Positions 5,530-39,447 of a stretch of 64,000 bases of DNA are shown piece after piece. This DNA is from a virus (taxonomy: Duplodnaviria; Heunggongvirae; Uroviricota; Caudoviricetes): IMG/VR virus record IMGVR_UViG_3300044825_003843, positions 1-64,000 of that record; one strand, written 5' to 3'. The position numbers and the translations under genes are program-made. How positions within the stretch are numbered: position 1 is the stretch's first letter; each line of letters opens with the position of its first letter. The notes under the pieces are model-generated. The model was not told where the DNA came from. It worked only from the letters and a program-made list of their open reading frames with translations, and ran no database searches.

Positions 5530-5549
5530 ATTGATAAATATTTAATAGT

Positions 5550-5819
5550 ATGTATTACATTATAACAGAGGAACAGGTAAAAAGATTAGTCAAAGGTTGG
5601 AAAGTCAGTGAAGGACAGTTAACAAAAACTTTCAATTTCAAAACTTATAAAGATGTTTTGAAATTTGTTAATAAGGTAGGTTCAATTGCTGAAAAACAAA
5701 ACCATCATCCTGAAATGTTAGTTAAATATAATTCAGTAAAAGTTTCACTGTTTGACCACGGAGCCAATAAAGTTTCGGACAAATGCCACAAGTTAGCCGA
5801 CCTAATCAATAAGACCTAA
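5550..5819 (+). CDS. pterin-4-alpha-carbinolamine dehydratase (PCD/DCoH family)
   Basis: FNFKTYKDVLKFVNKVGSIAEKQNHHPEMLVKYNSVKVSLFDHGANKVSDKCHKLADLI matches PCD core (F.F..F..A..F..V...AE...HHP......Y..V...L.TH). Confidence 0.7.
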   Translation: MYYIITEEQVKRLVKGWKVSEGQLTKTFNFKTYKDVLKFVNKVGSIAEKQNHHPEMLVKYNSVKVSLFDHGANKVSDKCHKLADLINKT

Positions 5820-6007
5820 GTCTTTTCTTTCGGTATCAACCTAAAGGTACATGCACGTTTACCGTTGATGGTCGGCATACCATATTCATCAATTCCTATT
5901 GTTTTAACTGTCGTCTTCTTGTTTTTGAATCTCCCTGTATAAATTACATCACCAACATTCAAAGGCACAAATATACCCGATATTCTATTTTTATTATCTT
6001 CTTTCAT
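5816..6007 (-). CDS. hypothetical protein
   Basis: 63-aa ORF overlapping PCD stop by 4 nt. Confidence 0.3.
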   Translation of the reverse strand: MKEDNKNRISGIFVPLNVGDVIYTGRFKNKKTTVKTIGIDEYGMPTINGKRACTFRLIPKEKT

Positions 6008-6262
6008 TTAATTAATGATTTTTATTTACTCACTGAATTAAAAATTTAATATTAATATATGATTAAAAAAATATTGTTTTTCCTGTTGATAGTATCCTTA
6101 TTTTCTTCATGTTTCATAATGAAGAAAAGGGATTATTATACAAATTACAAAAAGAATGGTAGAAATCTAACCAAAGGGAGAAGTTCTTGTAATATGTTCC
6201 CATACCCAATCAAGGAAATGAGAAAATCTCGTTAATTGAAAAAGAAAACGAATACTGTTTTG

Positions 6263-6454
6263 TTAATAGAAAGTTTTTTTCTTTTTCTTCCTGTTAACCA
6301 TTAACTCTATGGTATATCCTATGAAATAAGAGACAATTAGAGCAAATCCCCAAAATATTTTGTCCCTCCAATCCATTTTAATCCAACTAACTAAAAAGTA
6401 TGCTCCGACAATTATCAGTATCCCAACGATAAGTCTTCCTATATGATGTAACAT
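6263..6454 (-). CDS. small membrane protein
   Basis: two hydrophobic helices (LIVGILIIVGAYFLVSW ; IFWGFALIVSYFIGYTI). Confidence 0.35.
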   Translation of the reverse strand: MLHHIGRLIVGILIIVGAYFLVSWIKMDWRDKIFWGFALIVSYFIGYTIELMVNRKKKKKTFY

Positions 6455-6491
6455 CGGATTTTAGTTTTTTTATGAATATAAAGATACAAAT

Positions 6492-6779
6492 TTAGATTAT
6501 GATAATCAATTTGTCATCGTGTAAAACTATTTGACCATCTTTGGTCTCCAATTCACAAATTGTATTTTCATCAATGAGTTTCGAAAGTAAAAATTCAGTG
6601 ATAGGATAATAATCTATAAACCCAACTTCTAAGTTATTACCAACTTTATTTGTGTATTTTACGTATCCTACTTGGTTAGGTAAGTTTTCCCCTTTGTTAG
6701 GTTTGAAGAAGATATACGAACCCTCCTGAACCAAATATCCTTTAATCTTCCCCGTAGATAGTTTTTTTGTATTTTTCAT
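6492..6779 (-). CDS. hypothetical protein
   Basis: 95-aa ORF. Confidence 0.35.
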   Translation of the reverse strand: MKNTKKLSTGKIKGYLVQEGSYIFFKPNKGENLPNQVGYVKYTNKVGNNLEVGFIDYYPITEFLLSKLIDENTICELETKDGQIVLHDDKLIIII

Positions 6780-7186: not shown

Positions 7187-8275
7187 CTATTTTATCTTAT
7201 CCACTAATTTTAATGCAGAAGCAATAATTTGGTGCATATCGTAGTAAATATAATTTGCCAATCTACCTCCAAAGAAAATGTTTTTTTCTTTTTTTGATAA
7301 CTCGGAATATTTCTCATAGAGTGAGCTGTTTACTGAGTCTCTTATTGGATAGTATGGTTCATTATATCCTGTGTAGTTTTCTGGGTATTCATAACTCACA
7401 ATTGTACCTTTTTGTTGTTGGAAATCAAACCATTTGTGTTCTACTATTCTTGTGTAAGGGATGTCTTTGTCGGTATAGTTCATAACAGGCACACCTTGAA
7501 AGTTATCGTCCTCCAAATGTTTTTCTTCCCATCTTAAACTTCTGTATTCTAACTTTCCGAATCTGTAGTCGTAAAATCTATCAATTTCTCCTGTGAATAT
7601 TACTTTACTACATAGTGAATTATATTTCTCCCTACTTTCGAAATAATCGACCCCTAATTCAACATCAATCCCATGCAACATTTTTTCAAATATTTGGGTG
7701 TAACCACCTATTGGCATTCCAACGTATTTGTCATCGAAATAACTACTGTTCCATGTAAATCTTACAGGTAATCTTTTTATAATATATGAAGGTAACTCAT
7801 CACAAGACTTGTTCCATTGTTTTTCCGTATATCCCTGTATTAATATTCTATATATGTCTTCCCCAACTAATGATTTTGCTTGTTGTTCTAAATTGACAAT
7901 TTCCCCTTTGTATTTTTGATTTTCAATAACATTTCTCGCATCAATTTCGTTATTAACCCCCCATATTTGATTGAAGGTCCACAAATTGAACGGTAAGGAA
8001 TATATTTTGTCTTTATAGTTAGCTAAAACATTATGTGTATATTGTTTGAATTCCGCGAATTGATTTACATAGTCCCATAGGTATTTTTCATTGGTATGAA
8101 AAATATGAGCCCCATGTTTGTGAACATGAATTCCATTGATGTTTTCAGTATAACAATTACCTCCAATAACATTCCTCTTATCAATCACTAAACATTTATA
8201 TCCTAATTTAGTCAATTCATATGCACAAGTTGTGCCGAAAATTCCCGAACCCACAATAAGGAAATCATACATCAT
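7187..8275 (-). CDS. glf: UDP-galactopyranose mutase
   Basis: N-terminal FAD fold DFLIVGSGIFGTTCAYEL...VIDKRNVIGGNCYTE...GIHVHKHGAHIFHTN and near full-length colinearity with bacterial Glf (YTEKQW, RFTWNSSYFDDKYVGMPIGGYT, YTRIVEHKWF, YYPI). Confidence 0.93.
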   Translation of the reverse strand: MMYDFLIVGSGIFGTTCAYELTKLGYKCLVIDKRNVIGGNCYTENINGIHVHKHGAHIFHTNEKYLWDYVNQFAEFKQYTHNVLANYKDKIYSLPFNLWTFNQIWGVNNEIDARNVIENQKYKGEIVNLEQQAKSLVGEDIYRILIQGYTEKQWNKSCDELPSYIIKRLPVRFTWNSSYFDDKYVGMPIGGYTQIFEKMLHGIDVELGVDYFESREKYNSLCSKVIFTGEIDRFYDYRFGKLEYRSLRWEEKHLEDDNFQGVPVMNYTDKDIPYTRIVEHKWFDFQQQKGTIVSYEYPENYTGYNEPYYPIRDSVNSSLYEKYSELSKKEKNIFFGGRLANYIYYDMHQIIASALKLVDKIK

Positions 8276-9438
8276 GAAAAACTAAAAGAAAAACTGTTTA
8301 AATTTATAGTCGGTCTTGATAATTTATTTGTATATGTTTCTTTTAAGGTATTTAACAAGGTACCAGTATTGTGATAAATTCTATCGTCAATCAAAAAACA
8401 AAGATTCGGGTATGGGTTCGGTCTATCAACAGAAGCCATAAATTCTACTAAGTTTAACGCTTCTTGATATCTACCTTGAGCGTCCAAAATTTCTACTTTG
8501 TGGAACAGGTGTTCATTTCTATTAGGACAAAAATCTTCAGCAAAATCAAAATATTTGAATGTTTTGTCTTTTTCACCCATGAATTCATATGCTTGTGCCA
8601 TCAAGATTAGTGCAAAATACGCCATTTCATTATTTGATGTTGCAATTGGGTTTTCAGGTGTCCATCCGTGAACTAACTCCAAATACCTTTCGAAATACCA
8701 TATACCCCTCCTCGCATACTCGTCCGAGTGTTGCTTACCAAAAGCTAATTCATCAGGTCTACCATAACAGTCAGTATAACTTTTTGCAATATACCATAAA
8801 TGATATAAATCATGTTTAACTTTATCACCAACAATGTTATCAATTTCCAATTCTAAAGCATCTCTCAGAAACTTTCTTGGAACGTGCCAAGTTTGCCCAT
8901 CTTGAGAAACCCTGTGTCTAAATGATTGAGGTAAAGTTACTCTTTGGAAGTTTTCACCAATATTGGGTAAATGAATAGTTTCATGTCTTTTATCTAATTG
9001 GAAAAACCAAGGTAATTTAGCGTTCCACATCCATGTTCTCATGTATCTTGTACCTCCATTCACAGCATTAACATTCCAACTCTCTACTTTGGTATCATCT
9101 AATATACTCCAATCAAAATCGTTATCAATCTCTAAAGTTTCGTCCGCATCCATTCTCAAAATCCAGTCACAACCATGGTCAGTTTGTAATGCAACTTGTA
9201 AAGTATGATTCCTATTCCAGCCAGGAAAGTTCCATTCAATAAAATAAGTAAACCCTTTGATTCCTTTTTGTTTAAAAAAGGTGTCAATTATTTCTCTCGT
9301 GTTGTCTCCTTTACCATTACATTGTATTACATAATAATCGATATATGGTGCCACAGACTCCAACATTCTTGTTATTGTCGGGGCTTCATCACCGACCATC
9401 GCATTCAAACAAATTTTAGTTTTTTTATTCATATACAT
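8272..9438 (-). CDS. glycosyltransferase (GT-A/GT2-like N-terminal domain) with C-terminal TPR-like region
   Basis: ICLNAMVGDEAPTITRMLESV...YYVIQCNGKGDNTREII and RMDADE (DxD-like); helical repeat C-terminus. Confidence 0.5.
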   Translation of the reverse strand: MYMNKKTKICLNAMVGDEAPTITRMLESVAPYIDYYVIQCNGKGDNTREIIDTFFKQKGIKGFTYFIEWNFPGWNRNHTLQVALQTDHGCDWILRMDADETLEIDNDFDWSILDDTKVESWNVNAVNGGTRYMRTWMWNAKLPWFFQLDKRHETIHLPNIGENFQRVTLPQSFRHRVSQDGQTWHVPRKFLRDALELEIDNIVGDKVKHDLYHLWYIAKSYTDCYGRPDELAFGKQHSDEYARRGIWYFERYLELVHGWTPENPIATSNNEMAYFALILMAQAYEFMGEKDKTFKYFDFAEDFCPNRNEHLFHKVEILDAQGRYQEALNLVEFMASVDRPNPYPNLCFLIDDRIYHNTGTLLNTLKETYTNKLSRPTINLNSFSFSFS

Positions 9439-10672
9439 AATTCATTTTTTGTTCTTCATCATAAAACTTTCTTATGGAAACACTATTTTGAAATTTTTGA
9501 GAGTGTCCTTCTTCTTCTATCCAATTCCAATCAAAAAATCCTAAGTAATTAATTCTTTCATGAATTGCTAAATCATAGTAATCTCTTATTAATCTTGCTC
9601 TTCGATTGATATCCTGAGCGTTGTTGTCTGTTGTAGTGTCTCTACTACTATATTGAAAATATAAAACTTTTTTCACATGTATCATCCTTGTATTCAAAAA
9701 AGTCCTGATGAGTATTTCCAAATCATCTGCTACAGGTGTATTTTTATTGTGTCCTCCGATTTCATGATACAGATTTCTTTCCCACATTCTTACGTGGTTG
9801 GGCATACTAATGTTGAATCTTATAGACAAAGGGTTGATATCAGGATATCTGTGTGCTAATATTTCATTTCCATCAACAGTTTCCCATTCATGTCCAGCAT
9901 AACCAAAATCGAAAAAGTTATCATGTCTTGCATACCAATTACCTGTCCAATCGTGGTCATAATATTTAAACTCACCTGTTTCATAGAACTCACAACAATC
10001 TGAATATAAAAATCCCGCGTCAGGAAATCGTAGAATAGCATCGTCTGCAACCGCCAAACAATTTGTGGTAAGACAATCGTCATGGTCAAGTTCTATTAAC
10101 CAATCACCATCACACAACATTGCCGCTCTATGTTTTGCCAAACCAACATTCCCACCCGTTATTGGATTTAGTTTGTATATTTTAACACGGTAATCTAACG
10201 ACTCTATGTCTTTTAGAATTTTGAAGGTTTCTTCGTTTGGTGAGTCATCAACAACAACCCATTGCCAATTCTTAAGTGTTTGATTTTTTAAACTTTCATA
10301 CGTTCTATAAATTCTTTCACCCGTATTATACGTGGGGGTAAAAATTGAGAACCTTGGTCTTATAACCTCACAGGATTTAAACACGGTTTGACAAACAATA
10401 TCATTAGCCAAAACACTATCAGGTAATTGTTGTTGATAGTATCTATAAATCCTAAGTAATCTGTAATTGTTTATTGGAATATCCTGACCAAACGAGATAA
10501 TTAAGTCAGGTTTATACTTTGTGAAATCAAGTTCCATGTTACCATCATAAGTAAGTGAATAAACTTCAACACTTTCATGTAACCCTTCCTCCCAATATAC
10601 ATCAGAAGTCAATGTGTGGTGACCAATTCGGTCCCAACCATATACAATAGCCGTAGGTTTTTTTGTTTTCAT
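9425..10672 (-). CDS. family 2 glycosyltransferase
   Basis: FSIFTPTYNTGERIYRTYESLKNQTLKNWQWVVVDDSPNE ... IELDHDD (GT2 DxD motifs). Confidence 0.7.
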   Translation of the reverse strand: MKTKKPTAIVYGWDRIGHHTLTSDVYWEEGLHESVEVYSLTYDGNMELDFTKYKPDLIISFGQDIPINNYRLLRIYRYYQQQLPDSVLANDIVCQTVFKSCEVIRPRFSIFTPTYNTGERIYRTYESLKNQTLKNWQWVVVDDSPNEETFKILKDIESLDYRVKIYKLNPITGGNVGLAKHRAAMLCDGDWLIELDHDDCLTTNCLAVADDAILRFPDAGFLYSDCCEFYETGEFKYYDHDWTGNWYARHDNFFDFGYAGHEWETVDGNEILAHRYPDINPLSIRFNISMPNHVRMWERNLYHEIGGHNKNTPVADDLEILIRTFLNTRMIHVKKVLYFQYSSRDTTTDNNAQDINRRARLIRDYYDLAIHERINYLGFFDWNWIEEEGHSQKFQNSVSIRKFYDEEQKMNYVYE

Positions 10673-20329: not shown

Positions 20330-20738
20330 TTGATTTATTTACTCCTATTGGGAGATGGTTTAGGTCATCTTTAGAAACCTCTATTAAATCAACACTACCG
20401 CTATGTAAACATCTTAAATCTAATAATAAGTAACTATCCAACGAATTCAACTTTTGTTCAAACCCTTCATTTGTTACACTTCTTCCGTAGCCAACTTCCT
20501 TAGAAGAGGCAAAACTTACCTGAGTTGTAATTGAACGAACCTCAACTCTTTTTCCATCTTTATCCTTCACATCAAATGGTGAATTTTCATTTTGTCTTTC
20601 TCCCTCGTGCCAAAATTCACCTACTCTACCCATAATTCTTCCATCATCACAAAATTTACGAGCTTCATATTCATTCTTGAATCCGAACCCTTTAGCAATT
20701 GCTTTAAAATCAAGTTTTCTACTACCAATTTGTTTCAT
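20289..20738 (-). CDS. putative PvuII-like type II restriction endonuclease
   Basis: 149 aa; NSPFDVKDKDGKRVEVRSIT parallels R.PvuII catalytic segment NDAVDNAGQEYELKSIN (D..D...E.E[LV][KR]SI); overlaps MTase gene by 41 nt. Confidence 0.45.
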   Translation of the reverse strand: MKQIGSRKLDFKAIAKGFGFKNEYEARKFCDDGRIMGRVGEFWHEGERQNENSPFDVKDKDGKRVEVRSITTQVSFASSKEVGYGRSVTNEGFEQKLNSLDSYLLLDLRCLHSGSVDLIEVSKDDLNHLPIGVNKSIAAKKFYEIYDSI

Positions 20739-20772
20739 TAGAAAATGATAATAAAATTTTTGACTACAACCA

Positions 20773-20806
20773 AATAAAAAACCCCATTTGTAGAAACAAA
20801 AGGGGT
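20773..20806 (-). terminator. putative terminator (minus strand)
   Basis: minus-strand CCCCTTTTG-loop-CAAATGGGG followed by TTTTTTTATTT. Confidence 0.45.
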
Positions 20807-20829
20807 CAATTAGTTAAAAAAACTTTGAG

Positions 20830-21780
20830 AATACAAGTTCTATTTGAGAATCTTTAGAAGGATTATGGTTTCCCTCCGTTTCCACTTCCTTTTGAGAAGT
20901 AATCCTCAGTGACGATTAATTAGGTTAATCAAACCTTGAGTTGTCAGATACTCTCTTGATACTTGCTACTCCTCGATGATGCCTCACCAATACTTCCTTG
21001 CGAGAATAGAGAACTTTTTCAAAAATCGTGTCGGGTTTGGGACCCTTCACGGCCGTGAACTTCTCACGACTATGTAGTCACCTTTCACTGACAACTGACG
21101 GACACTTTTCCGTTTGTAATTATTATTGTTAATAACATTTAACAAATGAATTGGTTTGTGGATTTGGAAAGTAGCGGTCCGTCAACCTGCTTCCCCATCT
21201 TTTGAACGAGGAAATACTGAACTACTCTCTGAGACATCCCTGCCTCCATACTTCAAGTTTACTTCATAACTCATGCCTTGGTAGGCTAAGGTTAAGGAGA
21301 ACAACAGCACCACCTGTACGAACTCATACCTTTCGGTTTTAAGTCAACTCTGATATTGAATCACGCAATTGTATAGTTGGATGACCATACTTCTTGCAGG
21401 AGTTCTACGGGTTATTCTTATCGGTGTTCCCACCTCAACCAAACGACCCACATCGCTTGGTCATCATTCCATTTCGCCTACAGTGTCACCCTCAGCTACT
21501 CAGGGACAATGATATCCCGCTTGTCTACTCAAGCTCAACAGAGGACACCCCTATCGAGCCGCAACCTACTTCAACCGAGGTAGGTCACTTTATACTGCTT
21601 TCACAGTTTATTTTATGGACTATAGACCGCCCAATATCTTGAATCAAAGAACTATCAAGTTTGAAGGAAAAAGGTATTTTTACGACCTGAAACCTTTCAG
21701 GAACCTTTACAACCCGTTTCCTTCAATTGTTCTACAAAACTAAGAAGGGTTTTTGATACTTCCAAATTTTATTAGAACTT
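20830..21780 (-). ncRNA. candidate large structured non-coding RNA (ORF-free, GC-elevated block downstream of tRNA); strand uncertain
   Basis: about 1 kb with stops in all six frames, markedly higher GC than flanks, many local helices (e.g. TTCACGGCCGTGAA at 21046..21059); no known ncRNA family recognised by eye. Confidence 0.3.
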
Positions 21781-21788
21781 TTTTTTGT

Positions 21789-21860
21789 TGCGTGAGTAAG
21801 AATCGAACTTACGACCTAAAGGTTATGAGCCTTCCGAGCTACCGCTGCTCTATCACGCGA
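21789..21860 (-). tRNA. tRNA-Met (anticodon CAT), initiator-like
   Basis: 72-nt cloverleaf CGCGTGA-TA-GAGC-AGCGGTA-GCTC-G-GAAGG-CTCATAA-CCTTT-AGGTC-GTAAG-TTCGATT-CTTAC-TCACGCA-A; C1:A72 mismatch and A11:U24 typical of bacterial initiator tRNA. Confidence 0.8.
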
Positions 21861-22166
21861 TGTTAAGTTAAATTCTACCCATTCCCCGTCGTCACCATCC
21901 AAGTCATGCTCTGGTTGTACATGGGTAGAATCAATATATTAAAGAACTTTATTCGATTAAAAAGTCCCACAAATCTACGATACTTTTCTCAAACTACCAA
22001 ATTCGTGGGACTAAGGGGGGAGAGATGTTTGACCATCTCATTTGTTTCACAAAGTTAAGAAGAATTTCTCAATTCGTCAAATTTTTTCTTGTGAAACTTT
22101 TTTTGTGGGGTGTTCACCTTTTTACAGGTGTGGATATATAAATATCACATTAATTTGTAAAGTCAA

Positions 22167-22589
22167 TTATTTTCCCAAAATAATTTGAAGTAATTTGTAT
22201 AAATGTGTTCCTGTCGAAAGTTCGTCCATTTGTTCTGCAGTAAAATATTTACATTCAGAATGTTCTTCACCATCCGAAGCATTTTCCAAATCAGGATTTA
22301 TTTCTTGGTCGGTGTTCAGAACGTATGTGTACATTCTCCCCTTAACTTTTTTACCGTCTCTAGTATGTCTTGGTAGAATACCTGTGAAAGTTAATTCTTT
22401 ATCAGAAATATCCAAATTAGTTTCCTCAAAGAATTCTCGCTTAGCACCTTCAAGAGTATCTTCCTCTTTTTCTAATTTGCCTGCTGGTATAGACCACATA
22501 CCAGGGTATGAGCCTTTACTATTTCTCTTACATAGTAAACATTTCTCCTTATGTTTTACTATTATTCCTACATATGTTTGTTGTTCCAT
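22167..22589 (-). CDS. Nudix hydrolase
   Basis: Nudix box GKLEKEEDTLEGAKREFFEETNL (Gx5Ex7REUxEExGU). Confidence 0.8.
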   Translation of the reverse strand: MEQQTYVGIIVKHKEKCLLCKRNSKGSYPGMWSIPAGKLEKEEDTLEGAKREFFEETNLDISDKELTFTGILPRHTRDGKKVKGRMYTYVLNTDQEINPDLENASDGEEHSECKYFTAEQMDELSTGTHLYKLLQIILGK

Positions 22590-32033: not shown

Positions 32034-33068
32034 ATGTCAACTTGGAAAGATTATATTGAAGAATTCAACTCAGGAGATACAGACTTTTTAGGAAACTTTG
32101 GAGATGATATTGGTCTGTTCGTAGATTTAATAACTCAGAAAGGATTACTTAAATACTTGAACGTTAATGCAAGTATGGAACCTGAAGTTGAGAATAAAGT
32201 TGTGTTGGCCTTTTATGAACATCACATGCCAAGTTATATAGAATTTTTACAAGAGAATTTGAGTGATGTAGAATTTGAAAATGGAGTGTTTTATTTTGTC
32301 GGTGACCCTTCAGATTTATCTACTCTTTTTGATGAAGGTAGAAATACCTTGCAGAAAAAAACTGTAGAAAAAATTTTGAGTGGTGAAGGTTTAGACTTTG
32401 AATTTTTTGACTACACAACAGACAACGTTTATTCCGACGTTGTTGAAGAATTGAATATTGTAAATTTGCAATCCTTATATGAAGCCGTTCTTTACTTTTC
32501 CAAAGACGTTCAAATAGAACCAAGTACAGAACTTTTAGAATTGATTGCTGAAGAACAAGGTCACCCTGATTTTGTAATCATAGACAAAAACAATGTTGAA
32601 AGAATTGTCGATGACAGAGAAACTTTCGAATCACTTCTTAATGATGAATTATCTGATTTGAAGGGTAATCTCATAAACCTTCATCATTGGGCTTACAATT
32701 CAGCATATGAAGAAGAAGTTTACGAGGAAGTTTGGAATCAGCTTGATAAGTTTTTTGTCACTGACCAAAAGAAATGGGTTTCAGTACCAATGTATACAGG
32801 ACCTGCTGGTTCACAAAAGATTGCAAGTACTATAGAAAGAATGAAATTACCAATAAGAAATTTACCCGAAATAATAAATGATTATCTAAGATGGAATGTG
32901 GAAGCTACATATCCAGAATCAGTTAGGTATTATGGTAACTACTCAGCAATATTGACATGGGTTCTCGACGAAAACCGTGATTATTCAAAGGTATATCCCC
33001 CTGATTTTCCTGATAGTTCTAAAGTTGATAAAAACATCAACGAAATGTTCAACGATTATATATACTAA
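32034..33068 (+). CDS. hypothetical acidic protein
   Basis: 344-aa ORF, only long plus-strand gene near the fibre module. Confidence 0.5.
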
Positions 33069-35152
33069 CCATTAAGTTTGTCTTCTATCTTTTTTAACTT
33101 ATCCTCTACCTGAGTCAATAATCTATATTGTTCTTTAATTGCTTGAGTGCAAATTGCAACAATCTCAGAGTATTTTACTTTATATCCATTTTTTTCGTCA
33201 CCATATACAACCTGTGGTAAAACCTCTTGAAGTTCTTGTGCAATGAAACCTATATCATCATCGTCTTTCTTGTGAATATGATATTTTTCTGGGTTCTTCC
33301 ACTTAAATCTAACACCCCTCAATTTTTGGATTATACTAACAGCATCCTCTATTACTTTGATATTTTTCTTCATCCTTGAATCAGACGGTGGTCCGATTGC
33401 ACCTGTTCTACCTGTCTGTCCAATATTACCTTGAGCACCTTGAGCTCCTTGTGGACCAGGTCCTCCACTTTGTCCTTGAGCTCCTTGGGCACCTGTTGCT
33501 CCTTGTGCACCTTGAGGACCCGCGGGATTACCCGCAAGGTTATTACCTTGGTCACCAAAATTTCCTTGAGCACCCTGAGTACCTGGTGGGCCAGGAGTTG
33601 GTTGACCTTGAGCACCTTGAAATCCTTGACCACCAACAGGTCCTTGAGCACCTTGAGCACCGGGGGGACCTGTATTCCCTTGTGGTCCAGGTGCTCCTAT
33701 AGGACCTGGTGCACCTGGCGGACTAAGTCCTGGTGCTCCTTGAGCCCCTTGAGCACCTTTCGAACCCTGACTTCCTGCGACTCCAGGAGTTCCTTGTGCA
33801 CCTTGTGGTCCTTGTGGTCCGAGAGCTCCAGGATTACCTGTAGGTCCTTGAGCACCTTGTGCTCCTTGCCCTCCTTGAGCTCCTTGAGGTCCCTGAGCTC
33901 CTTGAGCTCCCTGAGCACCCTGAGCACCCTGAGGTCCTAAAGCACCTTGTGCACCTTGACCACCCCGTGGGCCTTGAGGACCCGCAGTCAAAGATTGAGC
34001 TCCTTGAGCACCTTGACCTCCTTGAGCACCAACAGCTCCTTGTGCTCCCTGCGCTCCCTGAGCTCCCTGTCCTCCTTGAGCACCTTGAGCGCCTTGACCT
34101 CCTTGAGCACCTTGACCTCCTTGAGCACCTTGGCCTCCTTGAGCACCTTGACCTCCTTGAGGACCAACAGCTCCCTGCGCTCCTTGTATTCCTTGAGCAC
34201 CTTGACCACCTTGAGCTCCTTGAGCACCTTGACCTCCTTGAGCACCTTGTATTCCTTGAGCACCTTGACCTCCTTGAGCGCCTTGAGCACCTTGACCTCC
34301 TTGAGCACCTTGAGCACCTTGACCTCCCTGAGCACCTTGAGCACCCTGTCCTCCTTGAGCACCCTGTCCTCCTTGAGCACCCTGTCCTCCCTGTGCTCCA
34401 ATGTTTGCCCCTGGGGCACCTGTATTTCCTTGAGCACCTTGAGCTCCTTGAGCACCTTGAGCTCCTGTTGCTCCTTGAGCACCTTGAGCACCCTGTCCTC
34501 CTTGAGCACCCTGTCCTCCTTGGGCACCTTGTCCTCCTTGGGCACCAACGTTACCCACAGCACCCTGAGCACCTTGACCTCCCTGAGCACCTTGAGCACC
34601 CTGTCCTCCTTGAGCACCCTGTCCTCCTTGAGCACCCTGTCCTCCTTGAGCACCCTGTCCTCCTTGAGCACCTTGAGCTCCTGTTGCTCCTTGAGCACCT
34701 TGTCCTCCTTGAGCACCTTGTCCTCCTTGAGCACCAACGTTACCCGCAACACCCTGAGCACCTTGACCTCCCTGAGCACCTTGAGCACCTTGTGCACCTT
34801 GAGCACCTTGACCTCCCTGAGCACCTTGAGCACCTTGTGCTCCTTGGGGCCCTTGTGTACCTGAAGAACCTTTTGCACCTTGAGCTCCTTGGGGTCCTTG
34901 TGGTTGTCTGTTACCCTGCCATGCCGTCGTATTAATCAAAGTTCCAGCATCATTAATAAGAGTATTGGTTAATCGTAAATCTGCATTTGTAACTCTGAAA
35001 TTAGGATAAGTATTATCCAAGGACAGATAAGTAGTAACCCCTCTTCTAAATTGTAAACTAGCTGAGGTTACAACCAAATCAGTTTGGGTCGTTGCAGAGT
35101 CATAAAAGGAAATCGTCCCCGTACCAGGCGTTATCTTAATATCTTCAGGCAA
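33065..35152 (-). CDS. collagen-like triple-helix repeat tail fibre protein with C-terminal intramolecular chaperone (peptidase S74-like) domain
   Basis: about 480 aa of G-X-Y repeats ([10 protein letters not shown]...) and C-terminal [32 protein letters not shown] (SDxRxK self-cleavage motif). Confidence 0.85.
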
Positions 35153-38100
35153 TCAATTTTGTTTTTAAATATTTTATTTTTTCATAAATAGAATTTATCC
35201 TTTTTTGTTGTTCTTGAATTGAACCGATACAAAGAGCAACAATTAAACCATATTCCAATCTTTTATATCCATCGTCCTCCGTCCACACAACTTGTGGTAA
35301 TACCATTTCTACCTCCTGAGCAATATATCCAACAGAATCTTTTTCATAATAGTGTTCTTGAGCTGGGTTGAGATAGTTTTGAACTTTATCATTTTTTTCA
35401 TCCCAAGTAAAGTAAACACTTTGAAGTTTCAAAATTGTATCAATACTGTTTTTCAAAGTCTGAACTTTTGACTTCAATCTTCTATCTGAAGTAGGTCCAG
35501 TTGGTCCTTGCGGTCCTTGAGAACCTTGAACCCCTTGAGCACCTTGAGCTCCCTGTGGTCCCTGTGGACCAGCACCTGCAGTTGCAGGTGCACCAACACT
35601 ACCTTGAGCTCCTTGTGCACCTTGAGCCCCTTGCGGGGCACTTAACCCTTGGGTTCCTTGAGCACCTTGAGCACCCTGAGGTCCTCGAGGTCCAGTTGGA
35701 GAGGCACCCTGAGCACCTTGTGCACCCTGAACCGTACCTTGCGGTCCAGCAGCTCCCGAGTTACCTGTCACACCTTGAGCTCCTTGTGGACCTTGTGGAC
35801 CTTGGGCACCTTGAACACCTTGAACACCTTGTGGTCCCTGAGCACCTTGCCCACCTTGGGCACCTTGGGCACCTTGGGCACCTTGTGTAGTATTTGTAGT
35901 TCCTGGTGCGCCAGGATTACCGACCACAGCACTTGCACTTCCTTGGGCTCCTTGAGGTCCTTTCGCACCTTGCGCTCCTGTGTTAGCACCTGACGCACCT
36001 GTGTTACCTGTCCCTCCAGGGACACCTTGAGCTCCGGTCGCACCCACGGGTCCTTGAAGTCCTTGAGCTCCTTGGTTTCCTTGGAATCCTTGTGGTCCTT
36101 GTGGTCCAGGTGCTCCAGGCGTTGTGTTGGCAGCACCTTGAGCACCTTGTCCTCCTTGCGCCCCTTGAGCACCCTGAGCACCTGTATTTGCACCCTGAGC
36201 TCCTTGAGCACCTGTCGCTCCTTGCACCCCTTGAGCACCCTGAGCACCTGTATTTGCACCCTGAGCTCCTTGAGCACCTTGAGCTCCTTGTTGTCCAACT
36301 GCGCCGGTATTTAGACCCTGAGCTCCCTGAGCGCCTGTTGCTCCTTGTATCCCTAATGCACCCTGAGCACCTGTATTTGCCCCTTGAGCACCTTGTGCAC
36401 CTTGTCCTCCCTGAGCACCTTGTGCACCTTGTCCACCCTGAGCTCCTGTATTCGCACCTTGAGCACCTTGTGCACCTTGTGCACCTTGTGCACCTTGTAC
36501 ACCTTGTGCACCTGTATTTACACCTTGAGCTCCTTGAGCCCCTGTTGCTCCTTGAGCTCCTTGTCCACCCTGAGCACCTGTATTTGCCCCTTGAGCACCT
36601 TGTGCACCTTGTCCTCCCTGAGCGCCTTGTGCTCCCTGAGCACCTGTATTTGCTCCCTGAGCTCCCTGAGCACCTTGTCCTCCCTGAGTGCCTTGTGCTC
36701 CCTGAGCACCTGTATTTGCTCCCTGAGCACCTTGAGCTCCTTGAGCACCTTGAGCTCCTTGAGCACCTTGAGCTCCTGTGTTTGCTCCCTGAGCACCTTG
36801 AGCTCCCTGAGCACCTTGTCCTCCCTGAGCACCTTGAGCACCTGTATTTGCTCCCTGAGCACCTTGTCCTCCCTGAGCACCTTGTCCTCCCTGAGCACCT
36901 TGAGCTCCTGTGTTTGCTCCCTGAGCACCTTGTGCTCCTTGCACACCAATACTTCCTTGAGCACCTTGGGCTCCCTGCACACCAATACTTCCTTGAGCAC
37001 CTTGAGGTCCTTGTGACCCCTGAGCACCTTGAGCTCCTTGTCCTCCTTGGAACCCAATAATATTTGTTGTTGGTCCTACCCAAATGGCAGAACTATTAAC
37101 AAATAAAGTATTTCCAACATACAATCCACCTGAATTTAGGCTAGCCCCTGATGATAATATATTTTGTGGCCCTATTTGAAATCCCGTGGAAACTGTTGAA
37201 GATGAGAGTTGTAAAAACAAATTTTCAACATTCAACTGTAACTTGTTTGTACCATCATCGAATATGATGAATGGTTTCAGAACTGAAGCATTACCTTGAG
37301 GATATATTATTATATTAGCCATTTATTTTACTTTCTAATTCTTTTACTTCGATAAGAAGTTTTTCTATTTCTCTTTGATGCTCTTTTATCGCTTCAACCA
37401 CAACCGCGTTCAATTTGGTGTATTCCACGTAATAATATCCAGACTTATTGACACCAACGGCCTCAGGGAAATATTTCTTAAGGTCTTGGGCTATCAATCC
37501 GATAGACTGTAGTTTACCTACCTGAGAAAGATAATCATATTTGTTAGGGTCTATTTTATCATTCCATTCAAATTGAATTACTTTCAGTTTATTAATACTC
37601 TCTAACACATTTTCAAGGTTAGATACTTTCTTTTTCAATCTTTTATCTGAGAAACCTGGTGGACCTGGGAAACCAGGGTCCCCTTTAGCACCTTGAGCCC
37701 CTTGAGCACCCGTATTTCCTGTCGGTCCTCCACTTGCAGGACCTTGAGCTCCTTGTGCACCTTGAGCTCCGGTGTCCCCTTGAGCACCAAATTTTGCACC
37801 TGTAGCACCTTGAGCACCTTGTGCACCTTGAAACCCTGTTGGTCCTTGAGGTCCGAGAGTTCCTGGAGCACCTTGAGCCCCATTGGGTCCGAATGCACCT
37901 GGTCCTCCTTGAAAACCTATATTGCCTGGCGCACCTGGCCTTCCGACGAATCCTTGTGCTCCTTGTAGTCCTTGTATTCCTGTAGCACCTTGAGCCCCTT
38001 GAGCACCTTGACCTCCTTGGGCCCCTTGAGCACCTGTAGGACCATTAGGTCCAGGTGGACCTTGGACTCCTTGTGCTCCTGCAGCTCCCTGAGCACCTTG

Positions 38101-39130
38101 TGGACCTTGTTGTCCCTGAGCACCTTGCGGTCCCAAAGGGCCTTGAGCACCTTGTGGACCTGTGGGTCCTGCGGCTCCTTGGAAATTTTGAGGTCCTTTC
38201 GCACCTTGAGCACCTTGTGAACCTTGAGCACCTTGAATACCCGGAGGTCCAATAGGTCCTATAGGTCCTTGAGCACCTTGAGCACCTTGAGCACCTTGAG
38301 CACCTTGTCCACCTTGAGCACCTTGTGGACCTTTGGAACCCTGAGCTCCCTGAGCTCCTTGTGCTCCCTGAGCTCCTTGTGCTCCTTGTGGACCTTTGGA
38401 ACCCTGAGCTCCCTGAGCACCTTGTGGCCCTTGAGCTCCTTGTGGTCCTGATGGTCCTTTGGCCCCTTGAGCCCCTTGAGCTCCTTGACCTCCTTGAGCT
38501 CCTTGTGGACCCCGTGGACCTTGAGCACCCACAGAACCCTGTGCACCTGTACTTCCCACAGCACCTTGAGCTCCTTGAGGTCCCCGTGGACCTTGAGCAC
38601 CTTGACCACCTTGAGCACCCTGCCCTCCTTGAGCTCCTTGTGGACCTCTTGGTCCTTGAGCACCTTGTCCTCCTTGAGCTCCTTGCGGACCTTGAGCTCC
38701 TTGAGGTCCCCGTGGACCTTGAGCACCTTGAGCACCTTGGCCACCTTGAGCACCTTGAGCTCCTTGTGGACCTCTTGGTCCTTGAGCACCTTGTCCACCT
38801 TGAGCTCCTTGTCCACCTTGGGCTCCTTGAGGTCCGGCAAAACCTATATTCCCTTGAGCACCTTGCCCACCTTGAGCACCTTGAGCACCTTGTGGCCCTT
38901 TCGAACCCTGTGCACCCTGAGCTCCCTGAGCACCCTGACCTCCTTGAGCACCTTGTGGCCCTTTCGAACCCTGTGCACCCTGAGCTCCCTGAGCACCCTG
39001 ACCTCCTTGAGCACCTTGTGGCCCTTTCGAACCCTGTGCACCTTGAGCACCTTGTCCTCCCTGAGCACCTTGAGCGCCTTGTCCTCCCTGAGCACCTTGA
39101 GCACCGATATTTCCTATAAATCCCACATTT
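33400..39130. repeat. highly repetitive 9-nt periodic DNA (GXY-encoding ccttgagca/ccttgtgca units) spanning three genes
   Basis: visible tandem near-identical 9/18/27-nt units; all six frames open. Confidence 0.9.
35145..37322 (-). CDS. collagen-like tail fibre protein with C-terminal S74-like chaperone domain (paralog 2)
   Basis: [20 protein letters not shown] repeats; C-terminal [30 protein letters not shown]; overlaps neighbours by 8 nt. Confidence 0.85.
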
Positions 39131-39447
39131 CCTGGCGCACCTTGAGCCCCTTGTCCTCCCGCAATATTTGTGGTTGGTCCGACCCAATTCAAAGTATTAT
39201 TTAATATCTGTATTCCACCAACACTCATGAAATTTCTAATATTCAAAGTGTATCCTGAAATATTAGTGTTCGAAGGATTAACTGATAATATATTACTTTG
39301 AGTTGCAGAACTAAAAGTCACTACAGCACCCGATAAAACTTTCAATGAAATGGGTACATCACCGACATTATTTATAAAGTCGATAAAAGGAATTCTGTCA
39401 GGTTGTTGAACCAACCGACTCGGAACTATTTTAATGTTTAGACCCAT
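37315..39447 (-). CDS. collagen-like tail fibre protein with C-terminal S74-like chaperone domain (paralog 3)
   Basis: [16 protein letters not shown] repeats; C-terminal [30 protein letters not shown]. Confidence 0.85.

Follow-up and report, generated by a model that had tools for sequence, protein, structure and literature searches.

What occupies a block of about 1 kb that is poor in open reading frames (ORFs) and lies next to a tRNA gene in a virus of the class Caudoviricetes? The block spans 20806..21788 of a stretch of 64,000 nucleotides (IMG/VR record IMGVR_UViG_3300044825_003843, positions 1 to 64,000), which is referred to here as the window. A first-pass annotation had taken it for a candidate large structured phage RNA adjoining a tRNA, perhaps one of the classes GOLLD, ROOL and HEARO or a new RNA class. 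Such a noncoding RNA was confirmed, and the block as a whole is best explained by a complete GOLLD RNA gene on the minus strand (~21634..20822) with the published two-domain architecture, a reading that we hold to be almost certain. It is based on a match to Rfam model RF02032 and on a covariation-supported structure over ~813 nt. Strand, which had been left unassigned, is minus for the GOLLD RNA, the tRNA, the terminator and the promoter-like motifs alike. The gene and its domains are as follows.

20822..21634, minus strand: GOLLD RNA gene, complete, ~813 nt (colinearity with env-38 and conservation with relatives)
20822..21229, minus strand: GOLLD 3′ domain (P14-P27), the universally conserved half (full-model match to RF02032)
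21230..21634, minus strand: GOLLD 5′ domain (P1-P13), env-38 type (homology to env-38; outside the Rfam model)

Identity of the block

The whole window was scanned against Rfam at gathering thresholds, and 20400..22400 was also searched with cmscan at permissive settings (up to E = 10). The gathering scan returned exactly two RNAs, GOLLD and one tRNA. RF02032 matched 20822..21229 on the minus strand over its entire length (model positions 1-416 of 416; 316.5 bits, E 9e-90, gathering cut-off 150 bits), and the cmscan alignment contained only four non-canonical pairs and formed the annotated pseudoknot. ROOL, HEARO, tmRNA, RNase P RNA and group I/II introns had no match in 20400..22400 even at E <= 10; beyond GOLLD and the tRNA, the permissive search gave only noise (E 0.7-8, scores far under the cut-offs). 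The Rfam scan that had been proposed in the first-pass annotation therefore singled out GOLLD among the classes listed there, and its other suggestion, a new RNA class, is excluded.

RF02032 spans the 3′ domain only, and the 5′ 405 nt would otherwise remain unannotated. Published GOLLD RNAs are longer than 800 nt and their 5′ domain is less conserved (PMC12286853). We compared the window with env-38, a GOLLD RNA from a marine metagenome that forms a 14-mer nanocage by cryo-electron microscopy (PDB 9MEE; Kretsch et al. 2025, PMC12286853). The env-38 sequence was taken from Supplementary Table 4 of PMC12286853; the recovered text has 815 nt, not 833, and its 3′ end conflicts with the listed primer, so that bridge residues were mapped by motif only. 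The minus strand of the window from 21633 to 20828 aligned colinearly with env-38 nt 3-810 over both domains, and the gene therefore extends over ~21634..20822 (813 nt). Long 5′-domain motifs were common to the two RNAs, namely GAGCUUGAGUAG-CAAG--GAUAUCA, GAUAAGAAUAAC and GGUGGUGC. These data establish the family membership of the RNA and the presence of both domains.

The 17-nt 5′-domain motif GAGCTTGAGTAGNCAAG retrieved 30 viral loci from IMG/VR. In 23 of these 30 loci with the 5′-domain motif (GAGCUUGAGUAGNCAAG), a GOLLD 3′ domain was present ~300 nt downstream on the same strand, with scores of 227-313 bits (one cut off by a contig end), and two further loci were truncated GOLLD copies. 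Conservation with 18 distinct relatives on viral contigs extended from UGGGCGG (21633) to 20822. The 5′ end of the gene is given as the start of this homology, accurate to ~3 nt, and the ends are thus established within a few nucleotides. Total RNA length was 813 nt in the window and 798-837 nt in the relatives.

These results bear on the possibility that the block holds a different or new large RNA class (ROOL, HEARO, a group I/II intron, tmRNA, RNase P RNA or an undescribed RNA) instead of GOLLD. Its basis was that the block could not be matched by eye, and RF02032 leaves 21230..21788 unmatched. However, only GOLLD and the tRNA rose above noise in the search of 20400..22400 to E = 10, and the part unmatched by Rfam is homologous to the env-38 5′ domain and is joined to a GOLLD 3′ domain in 23 viral loci. 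The Rfam scans, the env-38 alignment and these loci already refute a new or other class, which has practically no chance of being correct. Among the other classes, ROOL RNA (RF03087) is likewise a large ornate RNA of phages and prophages, lies near tRNA genes and builds a cage of RNA only (PMC12286853), but it is unrelated in sequence and secondary structure and had no match in 20400..22400 at E up to 10.

Evidence for a conserved fold of the GOLLD RNA came from an alignment of 19 sequences, the window and its 18 distinct relatives, which were 62-71% identical to the window. RNAalifold predicted 201 pairs on this alignment, 116 of them with compensatory double changes. In a 240-pair consensus structure, 96.1% of cells could pair, compared with 39-45% in slid controls, in which partners were moved by 1-3 columns; double-sided changes were found for 131 of the 240 pairs, compared with 28-48 in the same controls. 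None of 500 shuffles reached the observed pairing or covariation values. The 240-pair structure was derived from the same alignment, which favours it over its slid versions, but the margin is far too large for this explanation. All major 5′-domain helices carried compensatory changes, and the window itself forms 217 of the 240 consensus pairs (90%). An all-against-all scan of unpaired columns for tertiary covariation was too noisy at 19 sequences; it recovered one clean extra helix, GGUGAC (21082..21077) with GUCACU (20913..20908). Homologues and covarying pairs, the absence of which had been named in advance as refuting the RNA, were both found, and conserved pairing is established.

Searches beyond these viral contigs returned little. 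Apart from tRNA matches, a distant blastn search with the locus yielded just two partial matches to GOLLD, both in uncultured phages of 634 and 642 kb. By Rfam, both are full-length GOLLD genes adjoining tRNAs, with 287 and 275 bits, respectively:

LR745206.1:418022-423261: GOLLD locus (L100) of an uncultured huge phage, unannotated
LR756502.1:432144-437358: GOLLD locus (L101) of an uncultured huge phage, unannotated

Megablast of 24 kb around the locus gave no match in 50,697 phage records; therefore, the phage has no close sequenced relative in that collection. A 5′ motif had 69 matches in 185,579 representative genomes of bacteria and archaea, but none of these matches was GOLLD by nhmmer with a profile of the 19-sequence alignment. 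They are chance occurrences of a 16-base pattern in 596 Gb and hold no prophage or host information.

The coding content of the block is low, as had been claimed, with only two ORFs of at least 60 aa, the same ones that had been named:

21377..21583, plus strand: ORF of 68 aa (ORF listing)
21394..21642, plus strand: ORF of 82 aa (ORF listing)

The surrounding 1,428 nt (20739..22166), bordered by a 149-aa ORF ending at 20738 and a NUDIX ORF ending at 22167, form the longest gap without an ORF of at least 100 aa in the window. The second-largest such stretch, 5530..6741 (~1.2 kb), had no Rfam match at gathering thresholds. The raised GC content also held up, with 0.402 for 20806..21788 and 0.425 for the RNA proper compared with 0.343 for the window and 0.335 for each flank. 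The rise is modest: 8% of 815-nt windows equal or exceed the GC content of the RNA, because three collagen-repeat tail-fibre genes reach 0.58. The GOLLD RNA occupies ~813 of the 983 nt of the block, and the remaining part, a leader of ~150 nt, holds a promoter-like motif and a hairpin.

A decayed or frameshifted protein gene, with the raised GC content as a coding remnant, was also considered. The two plus-strand ORFs and tblastx similarity to the relative L011 could be cited in its favour, but neither ORF had a Pfam match. The tblastx comparison, which had been proposed as a check for a frameshifted pseudogene, showed similarity to L011 on both strands and in several overlapping frames, the pattern of nucleotide-level, noncoding conservation. 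Substitutions keep base pairs rather than codons, with 131 pairs changed on both sides, and a protein-gene origin is exceedingly improbable.

Architecture within the RNA

Several elements inside the 3′ half of the GOLLD RNA could be placed on the published architecture:

20939..21096, minus strand: long-range helix, 21089..21096 with 20939..20946 (Rfam pseudoknot)
21097..21166, minus strand: variable single-stranded linker J13/15, inside the 3′ half (unpaired at RF02032 positions 64-136)
21027..21070, minus strand: two adjoining hairpins that create a palindrome (fully paired, covarying)
20973..21006, minus strand: hairpin pair matching P21a and P21b (loops CGCAA at 20998..21002 and GGCA at 20980..20983)

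In the long-range helix, all eight pairs form in the window and five covary among relatives.

The linker J13/15 explains an AT-rich island at 21113..21160 that had been put forward as a possible promoter. The island is real (GC 0.19), but it lies inside this linker, and a promoter role was rejected, as this segment has no pairs in the Rfam model and differs in sequence between relatives. J13/15 was 70-80 nt long among the relatives, with little sequence conservation. It is a single-stranded linker that is able to carry an embedded tRNA in some GOLLD RNAs (PMC12990946), and the equivalent linker of env-38 (nt 497-538) is disordered and faces the interior of the cage (PMC12286853). Loop L20 and J13/15 form one of the kissing contacts that bridge GOLLD subunits, and in the relatives their complementarity covaries (GCAA/UUGC, CCAA/UUGG, and UCAA with UUGA or UUGG).

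A perfect 14-nt palindrome, TTCACGGCCGTGAA, had also been pointed out, and it is present exactly at 21046..21059. Its interpretation as a functional palindrome did not hold: it arises where two neighbouring helices meet, the 3′ strand of the first hairpin being directly followed by the 5′ strand of the second, and it was rejected as a protein-binding site. The helices involved (21070..21063/21059..21052, 21051..21048/21030..21027 and 21045..21042/21036..21033) are all paired in the window and all covary, and the second hairpin bears an L20-type loop, CCCAA (21037..21041). Among aligned relatives, the palindrome itself was common only to L011, the closest one.

The hairpin pair at 20973..21006 corresponds to consensus helices 36 and 37; every pair of both helices forms in the window, and each helix has 3-4 covarying pairs. 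Of the 19 aligned sequences, 17 keep the GGCA loop. Judged by their order and their loops, these helices are probably P21a and P21b. In env-38, L21a and L21b are symmetric kissing loops that join two half-shells (PMC12286853; PMC12990946).

The window RNA and env-38 (813 vs 833 nt) agree in their two-domain architecture and align colinearly over ~810 nt, the 5′ domain included; a P21a/P21b-like hairpin pair, an internal variable linker and a position downstream of a tRNA-Met are common to both. However, identity is only ~63%, and the L20 loop is CCCAA in the window but CGCAA in env-38. The GOLLD RNA of Streptococcus agalactiae (PDB 9L0R), for which a cage-type homo-oligomer is known (PMC12990946), shares the 3′ domain P14-P27. 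It lacks P9, P11a-c and P21b and is a 12-mer (PMC12990946), whereas the window RNA has an env-38-type 5′ domain and both P21-type hairpins.

Transcription signals and the tRNA-Met partner

Signals on the GOLLD strand were found on both sides of the RNA, together with the tRNA gene:

20774..20807, minus strand: intrinsic terminator, 15 nt past the GOLLD 3′ end
21661..21726, minus strand: leader hairpin between promoter-like motif P3 and the GOLLD 5′ end (-27.9 kcal/mol, z = -2.9)
21735..21766, minus strand: promoter-like motif P3 (TTTG-N20-TAGTTTTG), between the tRNA and GOLLD, 101 nt before the GOLLD 5′ end
21787..21859, minus strand: tRNA-Met (CAT), ~150 nt upstream of GOLLD (ARAGORN; Rfam tRNA 63.5 bits)
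21970..22001, minus strand: promoter-like motif P2, upstream of the tRNA, inside a strong hairpin followed by a U5 run
22050..22081, minus strand: promoter-like motif P1, upstream of the tRNA (consensus match)

With these features, the 1.4-kb gap can be annotated as a GOLLD RNA gene and a tRNA-Met gene with their promoter and terminator signals.

The terminator-like hairpin of the first-pass annotation proved real (z = -3.8). It folds with -17.3 kcal/mol, none of 200 shuffles was as stable, and a U6 run follows its G+C-rich stem (CCCCUUUUG/CAAAUGGGG). The Bacteroidota sigma-A promoter consensus consists of TTTG, a spacer of ~20 nt and TAnnTTTG. The pattern TTTG-N20-TAnnTTTG matched the window at six positions, each of them on the minus strand, compared with 0.86 expected. 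Three are the promoter-like motifs listed above, and two of the other three sit ~20 nt upstream of minus-strand ORF starts (11824 and 12476). In the relatives, too, this motif precedes the RNA by 76-109 nt on the strand of GOLLD, in many cases as tandem copies, and GOLLD would thus appear to have its own promoter. A sigma-70 consensus scan found 12 sites vs 8.0 expected (sd 2.9), ~1.4 sd above expectation; it missed the real terminator, which has one U-U mismatch in its stem. A sigma-70-like TTGATT/TATAGT at 21647..21619 was rejected as a promoter, as its -10 hexamer lies within conserved GOLLD sequence.

Several further elements were noticed around these signals. An element of ~55-65 nt occurs twice in the window (22039..22104 and 21734..21785, minus strand) and twice in L011 (181-235 and 320-382); each copy forms a hairpin, GUUUCACAA...UUGUGAAAC, with a loop bearing TTTG-N20-TAnnTTTG. 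Downstream (3′) of promoter-like motif P1, the minus strand of 21960..22048 holds a short hairpin (GAGAUGGUCAAACAUCUC), a C-rich single-stranded segment (CUCCCCCCUUAG) and then a hairpin GUCCCAC...GUGGGAC followed by UUUUU (-32.2 kcal/mol, z = -4.6; no Rfam match on the minus strand). This region might encode a small RNA, ~85 nt in length and with a C-rich seed, or it might be no more than a terminator for the NUDIX gene. Directly 5′ of the tRNA, 21871..21929 (minus strand) forms a long hairpin with a stem of 10-12 bp, UUCUACCCAU...AUGGGUAGAA, which at z = -1.7 is not clearly above shuffles. The motif AGUUCUUUGA (21644..21653, minus strand; alignment columns 30-75) lies 10-50 nt before the GOLLD 5′ end, a placement kept in L011, L010, L012 and L002-type relatives, and a similar AAAGUUCU follows the tRNA 3′ end; the motif could be a processing signal.

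The tRNA-Met gene was present as claimed, with coordinates that had been off by one to two bases relative to those of ARAGORN and Rfam. The tRNA has a C1xA72 mismatch, A11:U24 and GGCUCAUAACC, which are initiator identity elements, and its anticodon stem has only two of the three G:C pairs of initiator type. Overall it resembles E. coli tRNA-fMet, and these features suggest an initiator-like tRNA. A tRNA-Met of the same type was present upstream of GOLLD on the same strand in nine of the 15 relatives examined (L011, L004, L005, L022, L019, L021, L024, L003 and L010), and a tRNA-Met lay directly downstream of GOLLD in L001, L018 and L025. The tRNA-Met genes of the relatives and the window have C1xA72 or U1-A72, A11:U24 and GGCUCAUAACC. 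The context of env-38 has likewise been described as 'downstream of Met-tRNA' (PMC12286853). Upstream tRNA-Met genes and tmRNA genes of relatives are located as follows.

L011:110-182, L004:1359-1431, L005:1787-1859, L022:7209-7281: upstream tRNA-Met
L019:5281-5353, L021:13134-13206, L024:4943-5015: upstream tRNA-Met
L003:5794-6173, L001:8589-8940, L006:6220-6608, L002:6244-6656, L024:5101-5488, L017:3501-3852: tmRNA

Relatives have arrays of 13-26 tRNAs and often a tmRNA, whereas the 64-kb window has one tRNA and no tmRNA. In many of them, GOLLD is preceded by a tmRNA at a distance of 0.6-1.5 kb and followed by a large tRNA array, and it therefore heads a phage translation-RNA island in these genomes. 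The closest relatives found were L011, L014 and L030 (IMGVR_UViG_3300020220_005971 and others), with 71-74% identity over the whole RNA. Common to them and the window are the helices that create the palindrome, the L20 loop CCCAA, the leader hairpin (an equivalent GGAAGG..CCUUCC hairpin in the L011 leader), an initiator-like tRNA-Met upstream and the promoter-like element in repeated form. L011 differs in that its tRNA-GOLLD spacing is ~100 nt longer and that both promoter-like copies lie between the tRNA and GOLLD, whereas the window has one upstream of the tRNA.

Integrity, phage setting and possible function

Some observations weigh against the GOLLD reading. The first helix of the RNA (P1) is weaker in the window, with four of six consensus pairs, and L20 and J13/15 have only 3-4 complementary bases there, with a register shift. 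One 5′-domain hairpin is shorter in the window, where env-38 and the L003/L005 group hold an extra 14-18 nt. Small helix differences alter oligomer number, e.g. 12-mer vs 14-mer (PMC12990946); because of such differences and the shorter hairpin, a 14-mer cannot be assumed for the window RNA. In addition, the transcript ends and promoter use are those that we infer from sequence, and the host is probably a member of the Bacteroidota, as judged from the promoter motifs alone.

The weakened P1, the reduced complementarity of L20 to J13/15 and the single tRNA, compared with the tRNA arrays and tmRNA of relatives, would fit a GOLLD-derived relic, recognisable yet no longer assembling or functioning. 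However, 90% of the consensus pairs are intact, the score of 316.5 bits is the highest among the loci examined (others 257-313), and the conserved loops, promoter motif and terminator are all intact; env-38 itself is described merely as downstream of Met-tRNA. A relic is very unlikely, and the window RNA is an ordinary, intact member of the GOLLD family that can be detected with standard tools. The class, its architecture and its context are all published, and nothing about this copy is categorically new. What is mildly new is confined to two features of this GOLLD subfamily, the recurring association with an initiator-like tRNA-Met and the promoters of Bacteroidota type.

The genomic context is established and looks like that of a large phage. 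Neighbouring genes encode two N6/N4 DNA methylases, a NUDIX protein, an SbcC-like nuclease and three collagen/Peptidase_S74 tail fibres. The last are three tandem paralogues of ~700 aa (33065..39447, minus strand) with collagen triple-helix repeats and a C-terminal Peptidase_S74 chaperone domain, which are tail-fibre-like and form the most GC-rich part of the window (~0.58 vs 0.34 for the genome). Two minus-strand genes at 7187..8275 and 9425..10672 comprise a homologue of UDP-galactopyranose mutase, which has 50-57% identity to glf genes of phage records, and a gene with a weak GtrB-like glycosyltransferase match; these may be surface-polysaccharide auxiliary genes. The mutase says nothing about the host, since phages of many hosts carry it. 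For the neighbouring NUDIX protein, the only exact match was a Logan contig of 1.4 kb.

A possible course of GOLLD expression in this phage can be proposed. Transcription would most likely start at the Bacteroidota-type promoter ~100 nt upstream of GOLLD, read-through from promoters upstream of the tRNA-Met may add to it, which would imply co-transcription with the tRNA, and the intrinsic terminator (20807..20774) is the probable end point. By homology to env-38, we infer that the transcript should need no protein to fold and should assemble by itself into a hollow RNA cage, closed and dihedral, in which 5′ domains would form the caps and 3′ domains the rings, with the linker pointing inwards. 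GOLLD expression is reported to rise during lytic phage growth (PMC12286853), and published ideas on its role include encapsulating or sequestering tRNAs, ribosomes or other cargo in lytic growth.

Tandem promoter-like motifs precede the tRNA-Met/GOLLD pair. It is conceivable that this GOLLD subfamily and the initiator-like tRNA-Met form a conserved functional unit, the cage acting on the initiator tRNA or on translation initiation during infection; this is a speculative idea to which we give only a small chance. If true, the cage might store, shield or deliver phage tRNA-fMet or ribosomal particles, and the window would represent a minimal module (one tRNA and GOLLD, no array) in a probable Bacteroidota phage, in which the function of GOLLD could be tested cleanly.

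GOLLD belongs to the small set of natural RNAs for which large cages free of protein are known. The copy in the window is a compact example: besides one tRNA of initiator type, the locus has a promoter-like motif of its own and a clean terminator, and the host probably belongs to the Bacteroidota. With the 18 distinct relatives, this copy could be used for comparative or experimental work on the role of the cage.

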